Positions 6,734-44,269 of a stretch of 64,000 bases of DNA are shown here, in pieces. The notes under the pieces are model-generated. The model did not search any database, was not told the DNA's origin, and saw only the letters and a program-made list of their open reading frames with translations. The translations under genes were made by a program, and so were the position numbers. The DNA lies in the IMG/VR virus record IMGVR_UViG_3300033113_000110, positions 797 to 64,796 of that record, one strand, 5' to 3'. This DNA is from a virus. Each line of letters opens with the position of its first letter. Position 1 is the first letter of the stretch.

Positions 6734-6846
6734 GTGTTCTCTTACTCAAGGGGAGGGGTTGTAGCCCTCCCCTGGCAACTACCAATTGTTGAGTAGGGGA
6801 ATATGAGTAGGAGAATGTGTTTCGGCGCGTTCTCTTTTCTGTTTAA
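6734..6846 (+). ncRNA. Structured leader/attenuator, copy A (enclosing stem, hairpin, pseudoknot, terminator)
   Basis: TTCTCTTACTCAA/TTGAGTAGGGGAA, GGGGAGGG/CCCTCCCC, terminator GGAGAATGTGT-TTCG-GCGCGTTCTCT-TTTCT; homologous to 41048-41160. Confidence 0.8.
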
Positions 6847-7226: not shown

Positions 7227-7983
7227 TTACTATAATGGCGACCCCTCAGAAGAAATTGTGTATCCAGATTACTTTAATGGTGATTTGGTGGAAGGGATTG
7301 TTGGAGATTATTTCAACGGTGATCTTGTTGGCGGTGCGTCGCCGGTGCCGGTACCTGAAAATGTTGCTGTTGCTGTTACTGCTTTTTTTGATTTAGCGAC
7401 GGATTTGTATACAGTGCGTACATCATGGACAGCACTGGAAGAATCTGTAGACAGTTATCAGTGGCGGTCTTTTGATCCTCGGCGCGGTGGCAGTATCAGT
7501 GCTTGGCGTGCAGAGCATTCTGGGAGTAGTCGGGATGTCTTCAGAGATGCCTGGATAGAAGTTAGGTCTGTTAAAGAGGGCAGATATTCTCAGCCGGTCA
7601 GGGTCGCTTTCAGTGAATTTACCTATCCTGCTGTAAATACACCGAGAGATTTAACAGTTGAGGTTACAGAGGATACCAGTTCTGTATTTGGATTAACATT
7701 GGATTGGTTGCCGCCTGCTAATTTGTTTGGTAGGACTGTTAGGTACTATGTAGACAGAGGTGGGATTAGCTTTGATTATCATACCGCTCCTGCAAATTTA
7801 AGGTTCTCTGGTGCAAGGTCTAATTTCCCCTATTTCGCTGTGCGCGCGGAAGCATCGGACGGGAGTGTATCGGGTTATATCAGAGTCAATGATGCAGATT
7901 ATGTAGAACCGGAAACAGGCAATATTCTTGTATTGAACAATAAAATCTTGGTGATAGGCGATAAAATTCTACATATCGCATAG
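7219..7983 (+). CDS. Fibronectin type III-like protein
   Basis: TPRDLTVEVTEDTSSVFGLTLDWLPP; three N-terminal DY(Y/F)NGD repeats. Confidence 0.55.
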   Translation: MADYYNGDPSEEIVYPDYFNGDLVEGIVGDYFNGDLVGGASPVPVPENVAVAVTAFFDLATDLYTVRTSWTALEESVDSYQWRSFDPRRGGSISAWRAEHSGSSRDVFRDAWIEVRSVKEGRYSQPVRVAFSEFTYPAVNTPRDLTVEVTEDTSSVFGLTLDWLPPANLFGRTVRYYVDRGGISFDYHTAPANLRFSGARSNFPYFAVRAEASDGSVSGYIRVNDADYVEPETGNILVLNNKILVIGDKILHIA

Positions 7984-18168: not shown

Positions 18169-18426
18169 CTATGCCAGTGGGGGGATGTTGTTTTGTTCAA
18201 ACAGCAAATTGAGCGCGTCCCCGATTACGCGCTCCATGGATACATCTCGATCTGCGGCAATTAGCCGAACTTGGCGATGCACCTCTGCTGGATACCAACC
18301 TTGAAGAATCTTTTTGCCTTTCCGAGACTCCGGTCTGTTTTCAGGTTCACTGTCTGGTGTCTCGATCTCGGTATTTCCTTCTTGCTTTTCCTGTAAAATT
18401 GCTTTGAGACTTTTCTTGTTGTTCAT
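18169..18426 (-). CDS. Ribbon-helix-helix partition/centromere-binding protein (ParG-like)
   Basis: KILQGWYPAEVHRQVRLIAADRDVSMERVIGDALNLLF; abuts parA. Confidence 0.75.
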   Translation of the reverse strand: MNNKKSLKAILQEKQEGNTEIETPDSEPENRPESRKGKKILQGWYPAEVHRQVRLIAADRDVSMERVIGDALNLLFEQNNIPPLA

Positions 18427-18427
18427 G

Positions 18428-19048
18428 TTAGCTCTCCAGTTGTTTTTCGACGTATTCATATAAAATTTGTGCTTCGATAGATGCCTTACTTTTCGGCAGA
18501 TATTCTTGTGCGGATAGTCCGTGGTTGAGGGCATGCACAAAAGCAACACGGTGACCGAGTTCACAAGGGGCGCACTGTCCTGGATAGTTTCTCAGGGCGT
18601 CGCGTGCTTGTTCTCCGAGTGTTGTACTTGCGGGAACGGAATTGAGAATGATGTGTGCTTCGGTTTTTGCGATTTCGCATATCGAGAGTGTTGAGGCGAT
18701 AGCGTCTAAGTCCATGATCGAGGGCTTGCATGGGATCAAGGCAAGGTTCGCTCTATATGCCACGTCCAAGGCATCGTGTCCGGCGTTGGGGGGTGTGTCG
18801 AGTATTGCGAGGGTCGCTCCGTTTTCTTCAGCGGTTTCAAGCCATTGTAGGAGACGGGATGTCGGTGTCGCGATAATAGCGGGTGAGTCGGCATCTCGGT
18901 AGTCTCCCCATTTCGCTGCGGAGGTTTGGGGGTCGAGGTCGATGAGCACAGGGCTGTGTCCGGCGTTTTTTGCGGCAACTGAGATATGTGTTGCGAGTGT
19001 CGTTTTCCCGGTGCCACCTTTACGGCTCATGATTGCTACTGTTTTCAT
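18428..19048 (-). CDS. parA: ParA-family partition ATPase (short type Ib)
   Basis: MKTVAIMSRKGGTGKTT, LIDLDPQTSA, ILDTPP, ALIPCKPS; start at 19048 after GGAAGGA. Confidence 0.93.
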   Translation of the reverse strand: MKTVAIMSRKGGTGKTTLATHISVAAKNAGHSPVLIDLDPQTSAAKWGDYRDADSPAIIATPTSRLLQWLETAEENGATLAILDTPPNAGHDALDVAYRANLALIPCKPSIMDLDAIASTLSICEIAKTEAHIILNSVPASTTLGEQARDALRNYPGQCAPCELGHRVAFVHALNHGLSAQEYLPKSKASIEAQILYEYVEKQLES

Positions 19049-19534
19049 GTTGTCTATCCTTCCTTGTTTGAGATTCAGCAGCGTTGGTTTGTTTACAATG
19101 CAACATAACAACAATCAAACATACCAACGTTGTTGTAGTGTAAACGTTGAAAAGGATATTTGGGTTACGGTCTTTGTTGATCTTTCTCTTTTATGTAGAA
19201 TCACAGGAACAGTTTGGTGTTTGGAAATGTCTCATAAAATATTTATATTCGGGGTCTTCTTTCATAAAGGAATGATTTGGTTGATTTGCGTGGCATTTTA
19301 TACAAAGTGCTTTGAAAAAGTTAGGTGTGTTAAATCGTCTTCCTTCAATATGATGCGTATGTAGAAATAATCGGCGATGTTGTAAATTTATTTGGCAACA
19401 TTCGCAGGTCCAGTTTTTTTCTTTACGATACCATGCTGAAAGTGCTATCCAATATTCGTTTCTGTGAGAAATTGCTGGTGGTGGATTCTCGTAATTTGAG
19501 AAAAAACTATCTCTGATAGTTATGCTTAATGTTG

Positions 19535-19763
19535 TGATTTGCTCAATATTGGTTCGATTAAAAGTTTCGCGTTACGTTTTTTTTATCATGAAGAAAGGTG
19601 CGTTTCAATTCCAAACTGGTTCGATTAGAAGAAAAATAAAGAAAAACGTATTCTCTTACTCGCTGCCGTTTCAATTCCAAACTGGTTCGATTAGAAGTCT
19701 ATGGAAGGACTTTCGCCCCCGTGTGTTCCGTATGTTTCAATTCCAAACTGGTTCGATTAGAAG
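19535..19763 (-). CRISPR. Cas-less CRISPR mini-array: three perfect 30-bp repeats, one degenerate trailer repeat, three spacers
   Basis: GTTTCAATTCCAAACTGGTTCGATTAGAAG at 19602, 19668, 19734; two 36-nt spacers; degenerate copy ending TGGTTCGATTAAAAG at 19564 gives a 37-nt spacer; an ATTGAAAC 3' end implies minus-strand transcription (type I-B/III-like). Confidence 0.95.
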
Positions 19764-19767
19764 CTTA

Positions 19768-19797
19768 AATGTAACGTTTTTAGGAAAACGTTACATT
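19768..19797. repeat. Perfect 13-bp inverted repeat next to the leader-side CRISPR repeat
   Basis: AATGTAACGTTTT-TAGG-AAAACGTTACATT. Confidence 0.85.
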
Positions 19798-19895
19798 CAT
19801 CCTCTGCCTGGATCTTTATAATCTATATTCCAGCGAAGAATTTTGCATAGAATTGTTATAAGGATCCAAACAGAAACACCTAAAATAAAATCCAT
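19797..19895 (-). CDS. 32-aa single-TM peptide (not in ORF track)
   Basis: MDFILGVSVWILITILCKILRWNIDYKDPGRG; AAGGA RBS 9 nt upstream. Confidence 0.6.
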   Translation of the reverse strand: MDFILGVSVWILITILCKILRWNIDYKDPGRG

Positions 19896-20049
19896 TTAGA
19901 TTGTTCCTTTTATATTTGGCGGTTTATCCGCCTGGCTTAAGCCTTTGCCTTGGGGCTGGCTTGACTATTATAGTTATATACGGCTTTTTGTTCTGCTTTT
20001 ATACGACTCAAAGATTATCCTTAATAAACTTCTTCATGTTTTAGTATAA

Positions 20050-20186
20050 AGTGGGGAATTTCCCCGGCCCCTCGGTACAAAATCCTTGTCAGGGGACTTG
20101 GATAGGACCGACACGGTGGTGTGTCGGCTGACAACCCTATCCGACCGAAGTAATTTAATTCTACAATTTTTTGTCAGAAAAGTCAA
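20050..20186 (-). ncRNA. Sigma70 promoter plus pseudoknotted RNA, copy X1
   Basis: TTGACT-17-TAGAAT; CTTCGGT/ACCGAGG, GGATAGG/CCTATCC, TTGTCAG/CTGACAA, CCGACAC/GTGTCGG; then GGGGAAATTCCCC-ACTTT. Confidence 0.75.
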
Positions 20187-20248
20187 TTTTTTTTTATTTT
20201 CTGAACTTAACGTTTGGAGACTTTTGTTAAGTTCGGGCTTTTTTGGCT

Positions 20249-21070
20249 CTAAAATATGGTGAGTTGGTTCGGGTGTATCTTAGGTTCTTTTTTAGGCTCA
20301 GGTTCTGTCTCGATTCCGAAGTTTTTGATCGGGTACTGGTTTTCTACAGGGTCTTGCTCACCTGGTAGACAGAATTTACCTTGTCCTGGACGTTTGTGGC
20401 TCCATTGTTTGAAGAAGAATGGGACTTCCCTGATTTTGCATTCTTTGTAGATGTTGTGAACCCATTTGTACTTGCAAGGGCGGTGATTGGGGCCGCTTTC
20501 GCCGCCGACGATGACCCAGTGGACATATCCGAGATCTTTTTTCAGTCCTTCGGCGATGTCTTCGAGTAGAGGTTCACATGAGAGAAACCGGATGTCGGCT
20601 TTGATTTCACGTAGTTGTTTGACTCGATGGAGAACTTTGTTATTTTCGACGCTTGTGCCGATCCAGACGTGAGGCGGAATGTCGAGCCACTTCTGTGCCT
20701 CTATGAATCGCTCGGGGCGTTTTGTTAGGACTTGGTATTGGTGTTGGCTTGCTTCTCGCATGACATCAAAAATTGCGGTAAGTTCTTCGTCTGATACGTC
20801 GGGATGGCAAATATCTGACATGGAGCAAGTAAAGACCATCCGAGGATTTTTCCAGCCTTTCGGCTGTTTGAGCCGCTCTTTGATGAATTTGGCGTTGCCT
20901 TTCCATTTGGTTTTGTCCGAATTGATGATTTCTTCATAGTGTTTGATTCCTCGTTTTGCGAAGTCTGTTGCTATGGCTTCTGCGTAGCAGTTGCGGCATC
21001 CTTCGGATACAGGTTTACATCCGATTACGGGATTCCAGGTCTCGTCTGTCCAACCGATGTTTGATGGCAT
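20249..21070 (-). CDS. Phage Gp37/Gp68 (DUF5131) radical-SAM-like protein
   Basis: IGWTDETWNPVIGCKPVSEGCRNCYAE, VFTCSMSD, LTKRPER, FLSCEPLL, WVIVGGESG, PFFFKQW. Confidence 0.92.
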   Translation of the reverse strand: MPSNIGWTDETWNPVIGCKPVSEGCRNCYAEAIATDFAKRGIKHYEEIINSDKTKWKGNAKFIKERLKQPKGWKNPRMVFTCSMSDICHPDVSDEELTAIFDVMREASQHQYQVLTKRPERFIEAQKWLDIPPHVWIGTSVENNKVLHRVKQLREIKADIRFLSCEPLLEDIAEGLKKDLGYVHWVIVGGESGPNHRPCKYKWVHNIYKECKIREVPFFFKQWSHKRPGQGKFCLPGEQDPVENQYPIKNFGIETEPEPKKEPKIHPNQLTIF

Positions 21071-21252
21071 GTTTTCTCCTATAGAATTTTGAGAGTGCTA
21101 TGTTCGATTGTACTCTCTGGTGTCGGGTTATAGAGCGGTAAACTCATTTGGTATGGAAGGTTTAGGTATTCGATGGCGAAACGCTCGGTGAATTCACGAA
21201 CAGACATTTGGATTGTTTCCAGCATGATGTAGAAGCTTCCGTCCTCGTAGAT

Positions 21253-24075
21253 TCAACTGCCTTTGGTGCAGTGGAGTATCTTGGATGCTGAAATCTTGTA
21301 GGGCTTTTTGCGTTTGCCGTCTATTTTGATTGTGAGTTCGTAGAAATGCCCGCCGTCTTTGAAATAGCCTCGGACTTTGTGTCCTTGGAGTTTGAATGTA
21401 GCAAAGACTGACCATGGCGTGGCATCGAAGTACTGATCCTTTTTTTCGTCTTTATAGAGTGCTATGATCCGGGGGCGGTTTGGGTTTGGCGGCTCAAGCC
21501 TTCCGGGCGGAATACTGAGTAGGAAGAATTGTCCGCTTTTCTCGATGTAGTATTTGTTCTGGTTGTCTCGATAGATGTCAACTCCGTGCAGTTGGTGTGC
21601 GAGTGTCTTCGGTGTGTTTTTCATTATGGGGTTTTCTTTCTATGGTGATTGTTCTATCTTCTGGTGGTTTTATGACGAAGTACCAGACGGGGAGTAGAAA
21701 TTCCCATATAGTTCTTTCAGTTTTAGTATCATCATACTCTCGTGTTGAGACTTTTAGAAGTGATTTTTTCATTTTGTTTTTTCTCGTGCGATGAAGAAGT
21801 ATCCGACACCGCGTCCGTGTGCTTGGGTGCATTCTATTTTACCGGAGCCGGTGAGAACACCGATGGCGAGTAAGAATGTCTGGTTGTCGATGTATAGCTT
21901 TGTCTCTTTTCGGGTTTTGTGGATGTGTTTTTCGAGGTTGTCGAGCGGTATCCAGTTCCCGATATTTTCGGAAAACTTTTCGCTTCGAGGGATGGTTCGC
22001 ATTGCCTCTAAAACGGCATTTGCTGTTTTGTGAAGGTCTTTCATTTTAGCTCCTTTTTTTCTTTTGCCTAAACTTTTTCAAGATTCGTTGGATGAACGTT
22101 TTTGGGGGTTGGTTTGGTATTATCTGGTCTGTAGGATTTTCCACTTTGGGTAGTGGTAGTTGAGCGACATTGGAGTTATCTTCCTGCATAATGTAGCATC
22201 TGATGCCTTGATTTCTGAGGTCTTTGCAACGACGGATGGCTGCTTGTGCTTTTATGTCTATGGCAATTATTGTCCAACAGTCGAAAGCAGTGCTGTACAT
22301 ATAGATTTTGTATTTCATTTAGTAGACTCCTGGTGGTCCTGTTTCCTTTGTTTCCGGGAATATTCGTATGCGGATGATCCACTTGGTGGTTGTTTTACGT
22401 CCGATGAAGGGTTTGGAGTCGCATCGGTAAAATGGTACGTCGGAATTTGGATCTTCTACATGGATTTTGTCCCACTGGAGACTGGCGTATGGAACGGCGT
22501 TTTTGAATAGGACAGTTTCCCATGCTTCGTTAGTTGGATTCCGAATATCGTCCTTGGCGTATTTGAATGCTTCGTTGATGTCTGGCATTCTGAAGTAGAT
22601 GTCGTGTAGGCGTTTATAGTTTTCTGATTCAGGATCAGGTGGTTCTACACGGAGGATATAGAAGCTGGCTTCGTATTTTTTCATCGTAGCACCTCTATGA
22701 GCCTGAATTCTATGAAGTAATGGGTTCGTTTTGGATCGTAGGGATCGAGGTGCTTGTTCAGATCGTGGTAGGCTTTAGAGAATTCTTGGAAGTCTTTATA
22801 GCCTTCTTTCTCGGCAATGTATTGCTGTGTGTAGCCGGTCTTTGCAAAGAAAGTCTGTTCATCAGTGTGTTCGGGGTTCCATGTAATGACGTTGAGGACT
22901 TTTAGCTTTGCGAAGCGGGTTTCTTTCTTTCTTCCTGTGCTGGCGGTTATGATCTCACCGGGCATGGGGGGGCGTTTCCGCCAGTATCTTGCGGTGAAAA
23001 TCTTGATTTTTTGAAGTATCCAGTTGTCCGCTGGTGGTGTGAATTGCATGTTCTGCATTATTTTCTTCCCTCTGTTTGTATGATAGGACTCGGTGCCAGT
23101 CGTCTGCCCGGAATATAGATTTTGTGTTCATTTTTGAAGTGTTCGTCACTGAATTCTGGTAGTGAAGTAAGCAGCGTATAGAGCCAATGAGGGACGTATT
23201 CTATAGGTTGATGTTCTTCAATGAAGTCTTCTCCTTCTTTTTTGATGAGGACTTTATGAAGTTTGTGGCGTTTCTCTGACTTGACGTGTTCAAAGATGTA
23301 GTATGAGGCGGGGAAAAGGTGCCACCATTCTTCGAGCAGGCTGTTTTCGTGTCGCTTCTGCCTGAAGTGGAACTTTGACCCGTGTGCGGGGATCACTTTT
23401 TCTTTTCTGATAGAGATCAGATAGACTCTCTGATTTTCTGATAGTCGTGAGAAACGATAGCTTTCTTGGGTTGTCACTGGGTTATTTTCCTTTCTTGTGT
23501 TCGGTGTTTAGATCAGTGAGGACATCTTGAATTTCTTTCAGACATTCGTTATTGAAAACTGTTGATGGATATGGGTTGAAGGTATACTGTCGCCATGCTC
23601 CGTACCAAGCAATTTGACCTAAAATCGTGCTGCTTCCGTTATTGATAACGTTGATAACGACGGTCTTAGGCTTTCTGTGTGCGATTACGAATTGGATGTA
23701 CTTGGTCTTTCTATAGATTGTCATGGTCTAATTTCCCCTTAGTGGTTCCACAAGATCGGCGAGCATTCTTGGGTCTCTGTATGCGGCATTTAGCCGGGCA
23801 GAGATGACTGCCCACTCTTTGGCGGTTAGTTCAGTTCGTGATTCAACTTTGTAAATTTCTTTGATGTGTTCCCATATATCTTTGTCGGAGACTCCGTGGT
23901 GTTTGAGTTTTGGCTTGAGTCTTGACATACAGGCGAAGCTTGCTTTGCGGTGTATGTCTGCTGCGGGATCGGTGTTCTTTTCGTTATCAGGTTGGGGGTG
24001 CCCGTTTGTTGCTACGGGTTCTGCCTCGAGCGTGAGGTCGTGTTTCCCGTTGGGCCCGTATAGATTGACGCGCAT
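21253..24075 (-). other. Operon of small hypothetical genes (21253..21624, about 21578..21772, 21769..22044, 22046..22318, 22319..22684, 23058..23477, 23482..23724, 23728..24075)
   Basis: Tightly packed or overlapping minus-strand ORFs with GGAG/AGGA RBSs. Confidence 0.6.
22681..23058 (-). CDS. ASCH/PUA-like domain protein
   Basis: KIFTAR...PGEII...AKLKVLNV...AEKEGYKDFQEF...YFIEF. Confidence 0.7.
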   Translation of the reverse strand: MQNMQFTPPADNWILQKIKIFTARYWRKRPPMPGEIITASTGRKKETRFAKLKVLNVITWNPEHTDEQTFFAKTGYTQQYIAEKEGYKDFQEFSKAYHDLNKHLDPYDPKRTHYFIEFRLIEVLR

Positions 24076-24267
24076 GGTTATTCTCCATTGCAATGGGGCA
24101 AAGCTTGACTTGCTTTTCAGCGAATTCCCGTTTTTTCTCGGATATTTCGGTGTCTCTGCAAAGCCTCGTTAGTTTGTTGATGAGGGTTTGTGTCTCATAA
24201 ATTTCTGTTGGCATAAAGAGATTCATCTTAAGCTGTTCTATTGGGATCCCCTTGATAAATAGGATTT

Positions 24268-24287
24268 AGGGGGCCCGAAAGCCCCCT
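24268..24287. terminator. GC-rich hairpin, possible terminator
   Basis: AGGGGGC-CCGAAA-GCCCCCT; weak U-tract. Confidence 0.4.
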
Positions 24288-24295
24288 TCTGATAT

Positions 24296-25264
24296 TTAGA
24301 TGGTTGTGGTAAGGGAGGCCATGAGTTTTGGAACATCGCGCATCATGTTCATCCGGGTTTGCACAGTTTCTTGTCTACTTGCTACCGAGGATAGTGAATG
24401 TGCAACATCGAGTGCGTTTTCTACTGGATCGGAGCCGGGAACATCAACTTGAGGTAAGACACTGACACGGGTTGTCCTTCTGTCCCTTTCGTTTGCCTCA
24501 CCGATATTTGGGTAGCCGTCCCAACCGGATTTCATGATATGGTAGGATCTTGCCGCGGTACGTTTTCCCCATGTTCTTGTTAGGACTTCATCGACCCAAA
24601 TTTCGAGAGATATGCCATCGAGTTGATCGATGGGTACTCCGACTGATACTTTCTTTTCTCTCTATTGCCTGTAGATTTCTCGCTCTGAAAGTGTTTCTTG
24701 GATATGTTCTTCCAACTGTTCAGAGAGGAATTCGGGTGTTAGAGATGCTGTGTGTCTTCGGTTCATTCGTTTGCCTCGGTCGAGTTGTGTCATACCGTTC
24801 GCGCAGACTAGTCGATACCATCCAGCTTTAAAACCGAAAGTCATGCTTCCGTCAACGGAGTTGAATAGGGAAAGTTCAAGGTTCATGATCTTCCCGTCGC
24901 CGGGGTCAAACGTGAATTGTGGGAACCGAATCCTTAGCCACATTCGCTCGCCGAGATTTGTTTGGGTGAGCTCGCATGCTGCGTTATGATGGGAATATCC
25001 CATAGATGCTAAGGTTTCAAGCGTTACGTCGATAGCAGTTTGGTGCTGGATGAGTGAATAAGTTTTTGATACTGTTGCCACTGGGATGCCGTTGGTTTCG
25101 TTTACGATGGCATCGAGATGTGGGTTGGCGATGTGTGGTGGAAAGCCCGCGGGGTTTGTGAACGGTTCTCGACTGAATTTAGGGAGTATTGAGGAATTGA
25201 TGTCCTGGTAGTTGATTTTGGTTTCTTCAACGGGACGACCTGTCCAAGTTTGTTCGTTAGACAT
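24296..25264 (-). pseudogene. DUF932-family gene with a single in-frame TAG at 24662-24664
   Basis: VATVSKTYSLIQH, LFNSVDGS, GWYRLVCANG; reading through TAG continues in frame (EIWVDEVLTRTWGKRTAARSYHIMKSGWDG) into ORF 24296..24535. Confidence 0.8.
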
Positions 25265-25275
25265 GTGTGAGTCTC

Positions 25276-25306
25276 CTGTAAAATTGTCTGTAAAATTGTC
25301 TGTAAA
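25276..25306. repeat. 12-bp tandem repeat in the DUF932 5' leader
   Basis: CTGTAAAATTGT x2 plus CTGTAAA, between an extended -10 (TGGTATAAT, minus) and the RBS. Confidence 0.7.
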
Positions 25307-25631
25307 TAACACTATAATTATACCATAAAAAAACTTAAAAGGCAATAAAAAATGATAAAATTATAGGGTTTTGGTTTCGTACAGGTTTGATAAAAAGGGT
25401 TATTTGGAGATAGTGATCCAGTCGATGTGCATGTTTTCGTTGATTTCTGCATCATCTTGGGTGAGTTCTCGGTCTTCGTATTCACCTTTCCCATCTTGAA
25501 ACGATGTGTATGCCTTCCATTTTGACGGATAGGATTCGCATTTGGCACTGAAGTTTTTCAAAGAAGCCGAAGTTCTTTGTGAGTTCTGCGACTTTCGCTT
25601 GGAATTCGGTCAAGTTGATTTCGTACATGGG

Positions 25632-26500
25632 TTAAGCCTCCTGTTTGAGTTCTCTGAGTTGTTTATCGATCTCCGATATTTTCTCGCGTATACTTCGCAT
25701 GATTACGGGATGGCATTGTGCTTGGGGTTTCCGTAGATCGAATTTTAGGCGAGTCCTGGAATGTTGGAGCCGCTCTATTTTCTGTTCGCGTGTCCCGACG
25801 AACATGAAGTCTTCGTTTCCTTTGAAGATTTCGGATTTCTGGATGGCGATGCCGTCTATACCGGTGGGAAATGAGAATAGTAATTTGCGTAGATTTTCTT
25901 TTGAGATGTTGCCTAAACGTGCAGCTGCGGTGTTTATGCTCCACCATTTTCCGATGCCGAGCAAGTTTTCGAGCTGTGCTTGTGTGTAGTTTGGCATGGT
26001 TTCTCCTTGGGTGGTTGGAAGTATTCTCGCACGTGGCGAGGTAAGTTATCGTATTCTTCTCGGAACTGCTCATTTGACCAATCTTCGACTTCGGATATAC
26101 AGGAACACGCGGGTTCAAACATATCCTCGGTATCGATGACAAGATCGCAGCGAGAACAGTAATTCCAATAGTCTTCTCTGATGACCATAATTTACCTTGG
26201 TGCTTCGAGACATTCTTTTGATTCTTTTGATTCTTTAATGATGCAGATGATAGATTGGCTGTTTTTGAAGACGATAAAAGCGCGTCGGATCTTTCCGAAC
26301 TCGCATTGGAAATCTCTGTAGCAGATGCCGTCTTTTTTAATCCATTCACTTGTAGGGTTAAGTCCGAAGGATTTTGCTCGTTTTGTGGTGCGTGCCTTGG
26401 CTGATCCTATGGGTCCACTCATAGCGATAGGGAGGCAGGTATCTTGCCACTTTTGGGTCTCGTCATTCCAAAAAGCTATCCCTGAAATGTACATTTCCAT
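25632..26500 (-). other. Three small genes (25632..25997 HTH-like, 25934..26188 Cys-containing, 26192..26500)
   Basis: ORF track; WSINTAAARLGNISKENLRKLL is HTH-like; AAGGAG RBS at the head. Confidence 0.55.
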
Positions 26501-30400: not shown

Positions 30401-33400
30401 TGTCTTTTTGGAAGTGGAGGGTGATGATTATACTGAACCGGTGGCGGTCGGTTGGATTGATGAGTATGGAACCCATGATCCTGGTATGGATACTCCCGCG
30501 GGGATTGATGCAAATAAGTTGGCAGTTGATGTCGCTCGTGATGAACAGCGGCGTTTGTCGCCGGAGTCTCAATTGAAGATTTGGGACATGTTTTCGGGGT
30601 ATATTGAGAGACGGGAATATGAGCAGAAATTATTGACTGAGGGGGATCCTGAGTTAGAAGCAGAAATTATTGCTCGTATGGATGTCCGTGATCCTGATTG
30701 GCGTAGAAAGATGCGTGTTGCCTCGCGAGCGGATCGTTCTGTTCAGTCTCCTGGATTGCGTCCTTATTGGGAGCAGGCTGTTGCGGAACAACCGTCTTAT
30801 GGTGTTAGTGATGAGACGCTTTTTCACATGGATATTCCGCGTGAAGAATACTATCGATCTCAACGAAAGCATTGGCAAGTACGTGCCGATGAGCTTTGGT
30901 ATGGTGGGCAATTTGAGGAGTATTATCACCATGTAGAGCCGGTTCGGGAGCGGGCGTATCAATTGCATCGGCAGGCTCGTGATGCTGAATCTGCTGATCG
31001 TATTCAGATTACGGTAGGTGAAAAGGATACTTCGGCAGTGTATCCTGAGAGTGATGTTGATGCACAGAAATATCATTCGGCAGCTGCTATGGGAGTCTAT
31101 TTGCCTGATCCACCAGCAGCGCAATTGGCACAGACGGGAGTTGTTGATATTTCTATCCCGAGGCATGATCGAAGATTTCGTGATGAGACAAGTTTTGAAC
31201 GGGCACCGGATGATTTAGTGCTACGTGGGCAGAGACAGCAGCGTTATGGTGCTGAGCCGATGGATATTTTCATGGAGAATATCCTTTGGAAAGAAGCGGG
31301 TATCGAGGAAACGAAAAGAATCCCGGAAGTGAGTGGGGTAGTAGATGAATTTGTCTATGCATCGGAATTGGATGAAGATGTTGTTCGCTATAAGAAACCA
31401 TCGGGGGCGGTTGAGAGTTTTAATGTACCTGAAGCGGAGGCGTGGCATCGGAGTGATATAGAGGAAGGGCGGCTGGCACGTCCCCAGTATTCTTTTCGAG
31501 ATTCAGACACTGCTCCGCCTGTAGATGTTTTTGATGTTTATGGGTTAACAGAAGGAACGGAGTCTCTCACTTCTTTAGACTTGGCTACCTTGGGTTCGGT
31601 TCGACGGAATGTTTTGGAGAGATATACACCTCGGAGAGTTTGGGAAGCGGCACAGACGGCGGAGTATCGTCAAGCAGCGCGTAGACCTATCGGACAGGGT
31701 ATTGAGGAAGGCTTAACGGCTGATGAATTAAGGGACATCCGTTTGAGAGGTGAACAGATACGGGCTGAAAGGGCGTTTAATGAAGCAACGGCTGAAGGTG
31801 TTGCTTATGAGGCTGAAGCGCGTCGGACTGCTCAGGCTGGTGCTTATCGGATGCAAGAGGATCCGGCTGCAGCAGGAGCGCGTGAAGCGGTAGCAGAAGA
31901 ATTTAGACAGGAAAGGGAACGGGCGGATAAAGCTTTTCGTAAAGTGTGGGATGAAAGTAAGCGGGTTATTCGGGAATCTCCTGGAGAACTTCCCGAGGAA
32001 ATTGCTGATCCGCCGAGTAAGATCAAAAGACGCTATAATTTACACTCGTTGCCTTGGGAAGATGTTGAACCGCTTGACTTGGATACGCCTCGCGCGCGGT
32101 TGGCTGGCTTTGGCGGTATTGAGAGTGAACGGACTTATGGGCTTGAAATTGAACTTATTACAGATTTGACACGTGCGGATATGGAGCGTGAACTTGAGTG
32201 GCAGATGGCACAAGGGTTATCACTGAAGTATGATTTATCGTTGAGGACGGCACGTTCTGAAGTTGCTCTTGAACATCATCCCCCTGCTCATGTTCAGTTT
32301 TCTCGGATGCATCTGCCTGGTGAAATTCAACGTGCAGAAGCGGCGGATTATGAGAGGTACAGATCGCAGTTTACGGGGATGCCCGGTGAGGAAAGAATTC
32401 GTCCGGAAGATTTTGAGACTCGGTACGCACATGAATTGGTTTTCCCGGTAATGCAAGGTGAGGAAGGCTTAGAATTAATCGGTCAAACAGTCCGAAGGCT
32501 TCAGGAATTTGAGACTGAATTGAATACCTCGATGGGTATGCACGTTCATGTGGGTGCCCAGGATCTATCGAACTATGATTTGGTTGGGATTTGGGGAGCG
32601 TTTGCGGCACGTGAAGATGTGATTGATCTTATGCATGAACCGTCTCGGAGAGGTCAAGGTTCTGCTTATGCGGAGACTTTGGTGAGGGAGCGTGGTGAGG
32701 GTTCGTTTACTTCATTGGGTGAATTGCTACGTGCGGAGATGCGAGGTGGCGATCTTTCTCAAGCACAACCTGTCTCGGAATTGGAACGGATGCGTTCTCG
32801 ACTTGAAACTGCGCGTCGGCGGTCTTTGCTTTCATCGGAACGGCGAGAAGGTTTTTTGGATCAGGTAGGCTATGGGCATCGGTATCAGAAATTGAATCTT
32901 AGGGGATTTGAGCACCAGACGATCGAATATCGGCAACCGGCACCGACACTTGATGTTAGCGAGATTGAACACCATATCGGGTTTATCACGAACTTTGTGG
33001 ATGAGTTTTCAGGGAAGCCTTTAGAGTGGGCGATGAGACAGGATCCGAGATTACAACAGGAATATGCTGGTCTCGATTTGGTATTTGAAAGACCTGATGA
33101 AACTGGACAGTTGCTTCTATTCCCGGAAACTCGGACTGAACTTCATTCGGCAGATGAATTGACACCTTCGCAACGACAGGCAATGGAGCATACCTACGGT
33201 GCGGCGGCTGTGATTGCGGGTCCGGGTTCAGGTAAATCCAGAACATTGTTGGAGCGGTTGCGCTACTTGACTGAAACAATTGATGAGCAGTCTGGTAAGC
33301 CTATCGCAAGACCTGAAGATATTCTTACGCTCGTTTTTGGAAAAGAAGCAGAGAAGGATTTGATTGGACGGGGTGGAGAGTTTGGCGGCCCCTGGAACAT

Positions 33401-44086: not shown

Positions 44087-44269
44087 ATCCGTATTGGCGT
44101 GTGCTATGCACAGCCAAACATCTATTTATGATACGCAAACGAGTATCGTTCGTAGGTTCGTTTATCACTCTGTCAGGAGTGTAGGTAGGGTGCAACACGA
44201 GGCGTATTGCACTGACAGCCCTACCAACGAACTTAGGAATATTATACGATATTTAGTGTAAAATATCAA
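44087..44269 (-). ncRNA. Sigma70 promoter plus pseudoknotted RNA, copy X2, converging on terL
   Basis: TTGATA-17-TATAAT; GTTCGTT/AACGAAC, GGTAGGG/CCCTACC, CTGTCAG/CTGACAG, TGCAA/TTGCA; later a 10-bp hairpin GTGCATAGCA/TGCTATGCAC. Confidence 0.75.

Follow-up and report, generated by a model that had tools for sequence, protein, structure and literature searches.

A cas-less CRISPR mini-array with Poribacteria-type repeats in a tailed phage from a sponge metagenome

Why would a phage carry a short CRISPR array and no cas genes? The window analysed here, a stretch of 64,000 nucleotides from a viral record (IMG/VR IMGVR_UViG_3300033113_000110, positions 797 to 64,796), holds such a locus at 19535-19763. 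The original prediction had described it as a Cas-less mini-array carried by the phage, which could borrow host Cas6 and Cascade to attack competing elements or could act as a decoy.

Array anatomy and phage context

The locus is built on a 30-nt repeat, GTTTCAATTCCAAACTGGTTCGATTAGAAG on the plus strand, whose chance expectation is nil, with 0 matches in 100 shuffles when up to three mismatches were allowed. Numbered on the minus strand, which is the direction of reading discussed below, it consists of repeat 1 (19734-19763, promoter-proximal), spacer 1 (36 nt, 19698-19733), repeat 2 (19668-19697), spacer 2 (36 nt, 19632-19667), repeat 3 (19602-19631) and spacer 3 (37 nt, 19565-19601), followed by a fourth, decayed repeat copy at 19535-19564. 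Repeat starts are spaced by 66, 66 and 67 nt. The three complete repeats are exact copies of one another, the three spacers are mutually unrelated, and the decayed copy has kept 19 of 30 consensus positions, all of them in the half facing the last spacer. The three identical repeats and three spacers originally described were therefore confirmed at exact coordinates, and the locus is a CRISPR array by definition (at least two near-identical direct repeats of 23-47 nt with unique spacers of similar length). An Rfam search returned zero matches reaching the gathering threshold, each repeat giving a sub-threshold match to CRISPR-DR2 (25.7 bits). A 99-codon open reading frame that spans the array on the plus strand (19522-19821) was discarded as a by-product of the repeats (FQFQTGSIR occurs three times in it), though gene finders would call it a hypothetical protein.

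The carrier is a linear tailed-phage record of 68,448 bp, ~64% complete according to CheckV, with a large terminase (phrog_2, E 1e-15), a DUF5131/phrog_2045 protein (E 1e-81) and a gene of 4,383 residues; most of its remaining proteins match nothing. The claim that 64 kb of this phage contain no cas gene was borne out over the whole 68,448-bp record, where tblastn with 13 host Cas proteins gave only matches with E > 0.1 and the Pfam Cas6, Cas1 and RAMP profiles gave nothing at E <= 1. Cas genes elsewhere on the same replicon would have spoken against the original prediction, and none was present in the record; this absence holds for the sequenced part of the genome alone, ~36% of which is unseen.

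When the large terminase was used as query, IMG/VR yielded no close relative, and in Poribacteria genomes identity reached at most 39%. The phage is a singleton: none of the collections searched contains a relative with the array. A ParA search yielded one contig, IMGVR_UViG_2740892559_000001 (G177), which has in common with our phage only a ParA/ribbon-helix-helix cassette and lacks the repeat. This pair of a ParA ATPase and a ribbon-helix-helix protein is located just downstream of the array (18172-19114, minus strand) and is 78-82% identical to ~31037-31960 of that otherwise unrelated 78.7-kb viral contig. Such identity points to a partition cassette that can be exchanged and, possibly, to a prophage state resembling that of a plasmid.

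The stretch is present in a single public run, a sponge metagenome that is probably the source sample. Independent assembly of this run was available as Logan unitigs (k = 31), which break at repeats. One unitig runs from a phage flank through the decayed repeat and spacer 3 into repeat 3, and another joins repeat 2, spacer 1 and repeat 1 to 47 kb of phage. Depth was 30.5 in both flanking unitigs and 29.4 in the middle unitig (repeat 3, spacer 2 and repeat 2), and the shared repeat 31-mer, which occurs twice, had a depth of 55, ~2x that of the flanks. Equal depth, together with array-phage junctions in independent unitigs, makes a host-array chimera very unlikely, and we regard the array as encoded in the phage genome.

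Host match, reading direction and origin

The original prediction had proposed that matching the repeat to host arrays would reveal host and subtype, and this comparison led to Candidatus Poribacteria and type I-B. Among 185,579 species genomes (one per prokaryotic species), the exact repeat was confined to Candidatus Poribacteria, where it was found in 7 stretches of 5 metagenome-assembled genomes (MAGs), and related repeats occurred in 103 of 176 Poribacteria genomes. One MAG (G001, JAGFCB01; contig JAGFCB010000144.1) has a 41-repeat and an 11-repeat array in which all repeats are identical to those of the phage. The arrays of three others (G002, G003 and G004) contain one- or two-base variants of the repeat and reach more than 70 repeats. 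Poribacteria spacers are 32-43 nt long, and the phage spacers, with 36-37 nt, fall inside this range.

The complete chromosome G002 allowed the cas genes to be placed. Its array (OZ244616.1, ~5.192-5.198 Mb), with a repeat that differs from that of the phage by one mismatch, ends ~250 bp from cas2, which is followed by cas1b, cas4, cas3, cas5 and cas7; Cas1b scored 457 bits against TIGR03641 (cut-off 304). Farther along are a second cas3, a Cas5t-Cas7/Cst2-Cas8b1/Cst1 module, all above cut-off, and cas6. G003 and G004 share this layout, cas6 and cas1 being followed by the array, with cas upstream and the array co-directional. Since Poribacteria arrays with phage-type repeats lie downstream of these cas operons, the host system is type I-B, and repeat identity assigns the phage to Candidatus Poribacteria as its host.

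Two further features of the host loci were observed. The region G002:C1:5198000-5217500 contains two tandem type I-B effector modules, each with its own cas3 and with a REP-associated tyrosine transposase gene between them, served by a single cas6 and a single cas4-cas1-cas2 set. In addition, host arrays are interrupted by non-repeat stretches of 0.4-2 kb (L008:162-1006 and 1706-2065; L005:1978-2918; L006:4787-6787), beyond which come short additional arrays (2-6 repeats) led by an exact copy of the phage-type repeat. They probably stand in tandem, with a separate leader for each array; tRNA genes were sought in the three interrupted loci and none was found.

In three host genomes the arrays lie downstream of the cas operon in the same direction, and the repeat then reads CTTCTAATCGAACCAGTTTGGAATTGAAAC. 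The three host leaders are on the cas side and can be aligned with one another, and variant and decayed repeats sit at the far end of the arrays. The positions of leaders and decayed repeats in the host indicate that the phage array is read on the minus strand, which is also the strand of the surrounding phage gene block (15794-26349). It follows that the decayed copy, real as originally noted but labelled a degenerate trailer, closes the array at its 3' end as the terminal repeat. Alignment of the sequence beside phage repeat 1 with the three host leaders showed no likeness, so a leader of the host type is absent there.

In the reading sense, the repeat ends in ATTGAAAC, 8 nt that correspond to the 5' handle left by Cas6. 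The type I-B system of Haloferax has a 30-nt repeat, an 8-nt 5' handle, a 22-nt 3' handle and spacers of 34-39 nt (PMC4326828), and the phage array is alike in repeat length, handle and spacer length. The terminal repeat begins with CTTTTAATCGAACCAATAT (19 nt); its 3' half is gone, and the handle with it. In Haloferax I-B the 3' handle can be dispensed with (PMC4326828), so spacer 3 may work even though the last repeat is decayed.

The terminal repeat also bears on the origin of the array. Over its first 19 bases it agrees exactly with the repeat that closes a six-repeat array in G004, an array whose first repeat is identical to the intact repeats of the phage. This fits capture of the trailer end of a host array by recombination rather than Cas1-Cas2 adaptation, and the array was most likely derived in this way from a host type I-B array. 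Recombination capture is the route that has been proposed for leaderless phage mini-arrays (PMC6858448).

The insertion seems to have taken place inside a gene. Downstream of the array, a frame of ~100 codons with no ATG, GTG or TTG start (19191-19496, minus strand) codes for an HNH-like C-terminal domain. A word-based homologue search with this frame gave no match, and an exhaustive search gave 1,043 relatives (best E 4.8e-29, 50-59% identity). Most relatives have 170-300 residues and the frame aligns to their C-terminal 90 residues; homologues with 80-130 extra N-terminal residues, comprising a membrane helix and a coiled coil, have what is missing in the phage frame. In 41 of 133 long relatives the protein starts with the membrane helix ME.IIIAL.LTILILLF, followed by the coiled coil. 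On the other side of the array, a 32-codon frame with an AAGGA ribosome-binding site (19797-19895, minus strand) codes for a hydrophobic peptide. An HMM built from the homologue N-termini ranked this peptide third among 1,049 phage ORFs at an E value of 1.4, which is not significant, and the view that it is what remains of the membrane anchor at the N-terminus of the split HNH-like gene is suggestive only. In a membrane-anchored HNH-like gene, the linker seems to have given way to ~300 bp of hairpin, array and terminator.

Transcription signals, targets and possible functions

The sole good promoter-like site on the minus strand of the gap is a sigma-70-like sequence, TTGACT-17-TAGAAT (10/12), at 20158-20186, ~400 nt upstream of the array. 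It is followed by a structured leader RNA, X1 (20070-20150; fold -43.3 kcal/mol, z -3.2), by a small G+C hairpin resembling a terminator (20053-20065) and by the 32-codon ORF. Then comes a perfect 15-bp hairpin (19766-19799; dG -15.2 kcal/mol, z -5.2, 0/200 shuffles as stable) that ends 2 nt before repeat 1 and is a candidate terminator or attenuator, processing site or operator. After the array, an A+T-rich 7-bp hairpin with a run of six T (19500-19521), identified by folding, resembles a terminator and could end the array transcript; the HNH-like frame lies beyond it. All these elements are on the minus strand. The motif AAAACGTWAC, present in spacer 3 and in both hairpin arms, was considered as a repeated phage element and dropped, since it is confined to the array region.

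X1 has a copy elsewhere in the phage. The region 20040-20160 and X2, at ~44148-44232 (44130-44240, minus strand) near the terminase gene, have nested helices in a common order, and the base changes between them preserve pairs (GGATAGG/CCTATCC versus GGTAGGG/CCCTACC, with CTGTCAG/CTGACAG unchanged). Copies at 6734, 41040 and 56898 show a weaker likeness to X1.

The reading that we favour is that of a leaderless, cas-less mini-array owned by a tailed phage of Poribacteria, which would guide the host I-B Cascade against competitors. A phage promoter would drive a minus-strand transcript of leader RNA X1, small ORF, hairpin, array and terminator. Cleavage by host Cas6, 8 nt short of the end of each repeat, would yield three crRNAs with the 5' handle ATTGAAAC; these processed crRNAs are expected to have ~66-67 nt and to start with AUUGAAAC. 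Loaded into the host I-B Cascade, they would direct Cas3 to matching DNA, most likely that of competing phages or other mobile elements of the same sponge community, which would amount to superinfection exclusion. A by-product would be dilution of the host's own guides by plentiful phage crRNAs. We give this reading slightly better than an even chance, because we infer all of it (transcription, Cas6 processing, Cascade loading and the nature of the targets) beyond the presence of the array and its compatibility with the host. As for the original prediction, then, its structural part stands and is strengthened by the host-identical repeats, while borrowing of Cas6 and Cascade or action as a decoy stays conjectural, no protospacer having been found in any collection searched and a host leader being absent.

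The locus itself provides arguments against borrowing. The 15-bp hairpin could halt transcription ahead of the array, and the nearest promoter-like site is 400 nt off, with a structured RNA and a terminator-like hairpin in between. The flanking gene fragments resemble a fresh recombination scar, which fits an unselected passenger equally well, and the lack of a close phage relative leaves no view of array conservation or spacer turnover.

The blank target searches also count against borrowing and exclusion. The original observation, made by eye, that the window contains no full protospacer was upheld, no self-target being present in the phage genome at up to 10 mismatches, and no protospacer was found in the G177 contig at up to 11 mismatches. 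The proposed search of the spacers in IMG/VR and host contigs was carried out and gave no spacer match: exact 36-mers and 22-mers of the spacers were absent from IMG/VR, spacer 1 was absent from the 176 Poribacteria genomes at up to three mismatches, and BLAST of the array against these genomes returned repeat-periodic matches only, with no spacer occurring as protospacer or host spacer. Exact 22-mers likewise gave no match in JGI metagenomes (spacers 1 and 2) or in GTDB genomes (all three spacers), and GenBank phages and PLSDB plasmids gave chance matches only. The collection scans needed exact words of 22 to 36 nt, which diverged targets would escape. In the reverse direction, 231 host spacers from four MAGs did not match the phage, the best having a 20-nt run and 22/39 identities over the full spacer. 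Since no close relative of this phage is present in the collections, the usual targets, sister viruses, may be unsequenced.

Blank searches would be expected if the array acted as an anti-CRISPR RNA, its non-targeting guides tying up host Cas6, Cas7 or Cascade or steering Cascade to host cas promoters; the consequence would be weaker host I-B immunity to this phage, rather than attack on other elements. We consider this mode of action and its consequence unlikely, though there are precedents: a canonical non-targeting crRNA lowered I-F interference in Pectobacterium, as did a Racr (PMC10651486), viral 'Cracr arrays' of 2-3 spacer-like units include I-B candidates (10.1101/2024.10.29.618823), and the occurrence of Poribacteria-type repeat mimics on another IMG/VR contig means that mimicry may occur among these phages. 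Against it, the three repeats are complete and host-identical and the spacers are unrelated and of full length, whereas a Racr consists of one solitary repeat unit and the pseudo-spacers of the Cracr that was tested are shortened to 21-24 nt. Moreover, comparison of the spacers with 12 cas-locus stretches of four host genomes found complementarity no better than that of shuffled spacers (one 9-nt seed match, 17/34 overall, with the best ungapped match at the shuffled level). The G002 cas locus contains no CreA/CreR-like solitary repeat, and no promoter lies directly before the phage repeats.

About as doubtful, in our view, is that the array is an inert passenger, a piece of host trailer acquired through illegitimate recombination or packaging that destroyed a dispensable gene and has had no function so far. 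The absent host leader, the position of the array between N-terminal and C-terminal fragments of one gene family, the resemblance of its terminal repeat to host terminal repeats, and the singleton status of a phage with no relative carrying the array and no known targets are all consistent with such an accident. On the other hand, all three repeats are perfect, their orientation matches the surrounding transcription and a terminator-like hairpin follows directly, which argues weakly for use, as a recent insertion would be equally clean. Published leaderless mini-arrays of phages recur and look functional (PMC6858448, PMC11656645).

A more elaborate reading, which we regard as quite improbable, is a riboregulated guide-RNA operon. 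In it, the X1 leader, acting as a switch of the phage's own, would gate the output of the array and time a takeover of the host I-B Cascade, flooding host guides and at the same time destroying rivals, and insertion into a phage gene would have created this dual-purpose use of a captured array. Finally, arrays do break de Bruijn graphs and this sequence comes from one run only, but a host array misjoined into the viral contig is hardly credible when independent unitigs contain phage DNA and repeat-spacer junctions on both sides at depths of 29.4-30.5, no spacer occurs in any host array searched and phage genes flank the array on either side in a contig of 68 kb.

Significance and comparison with known systems

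The strategy of a cas-less viral mini-array was already known; as far as we found, Poribacteria, which are uncultured sponge symbionts, are a new host phylum for it, and our literature search found no report of viral mini-arrays for Poribacteria. Repeat identity gives an orphan 68-kb sponge phage a firm sequence-based host assignment (Candidatus Poribacteria, I-B) and extends cas-less viral mini-arrays to an uncultured, CRISPR-rich phylum of animal symbionts. If targets were found, phage-against-phage warfare inside the sponge holobiont would be shown.

The closest sequences are the type I-B arrays of Poribacteria themselves, which share with the phage array the repeat (identical in G001, one base different in G002), the spacer lengths and the type of terminal-repeat variant. 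They differ from it in size, from 11 to more than 70 repeats against 3.5 in the phage, and in possessing conserved leaders and adjoining cas1-cas2, the phage array having neither a leader nor cas genes.

The viral contig that carries the repeat mimics, IMGVR_UViG_3300045996_001835 (51.5 kb, G+C-rich), has a different organization. At 7530-7690 it contains a 27-nt unit ending in ATTGAAAC, a 48-nt unit with repeat head and tail around an insert, and a head-only unit; the two 'spacers' of ~30 nt between them are 74% alike. The mimics lie antisense between two minus-strand genes, beside a small HTH-like gene, and by their sequence they look like a solitary-repeat or RNA anti-CRISPR element, not a mini-array.

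Racr (PMC10651486) and Cracr (10.1101/2024.10.29.618823) elements resemble our array as phage repeat RNAs that would compete for Cas6 and Cas7, and multiplexed units are known. In our array, by comparison, the repeats are complete and host-identical, the spacers have full length and no cas-promoter complementarity was detected. A Racr is a single unit directly behind a promoter, while the phage locus has a regular repeat-spacer structure and its promoter-like site 400 nt upstream. [quoted passage not shown]

The arrays of the Saccharolobus portogloboviruses SPV1 and SPV2 (PMC6858448) are, like ours, cas-less, intergenic and made of host-type repeats, and the use of host effectors for superinfection exclusion has been proposed for them. 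They have a host-like leader with a promoter and target each other reciprocally, in contrast to the phage array, whose flank is unlike host leaders and for which no target was found.

The nearest counterparts are the leaderless mini-arrays of phages and prophages, known from a survey cited by Medvedeva et al. 2019 (PMC6858448) and reviewed in PMC11656645, which are defined by one or two spacers, lack leaders and have host-identical repeats. In published cases most mini-array spacers match related viruses. Our array has in common with them that it is viral, cas-less and leaderless, has host-identical repeats and few spacers, and does not target itself. Where the described arrays have one or two spacers, it has three, of which two are enclosed by perfect repeats and the third precedes the decayed repeat. 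None of them matches a related virus, perhaps because such relatives have yet to be sequenced. It also differs from the mini-arrays so described in its setting, lying inside a split gene and behind a structured leader RNA specific to the phage.
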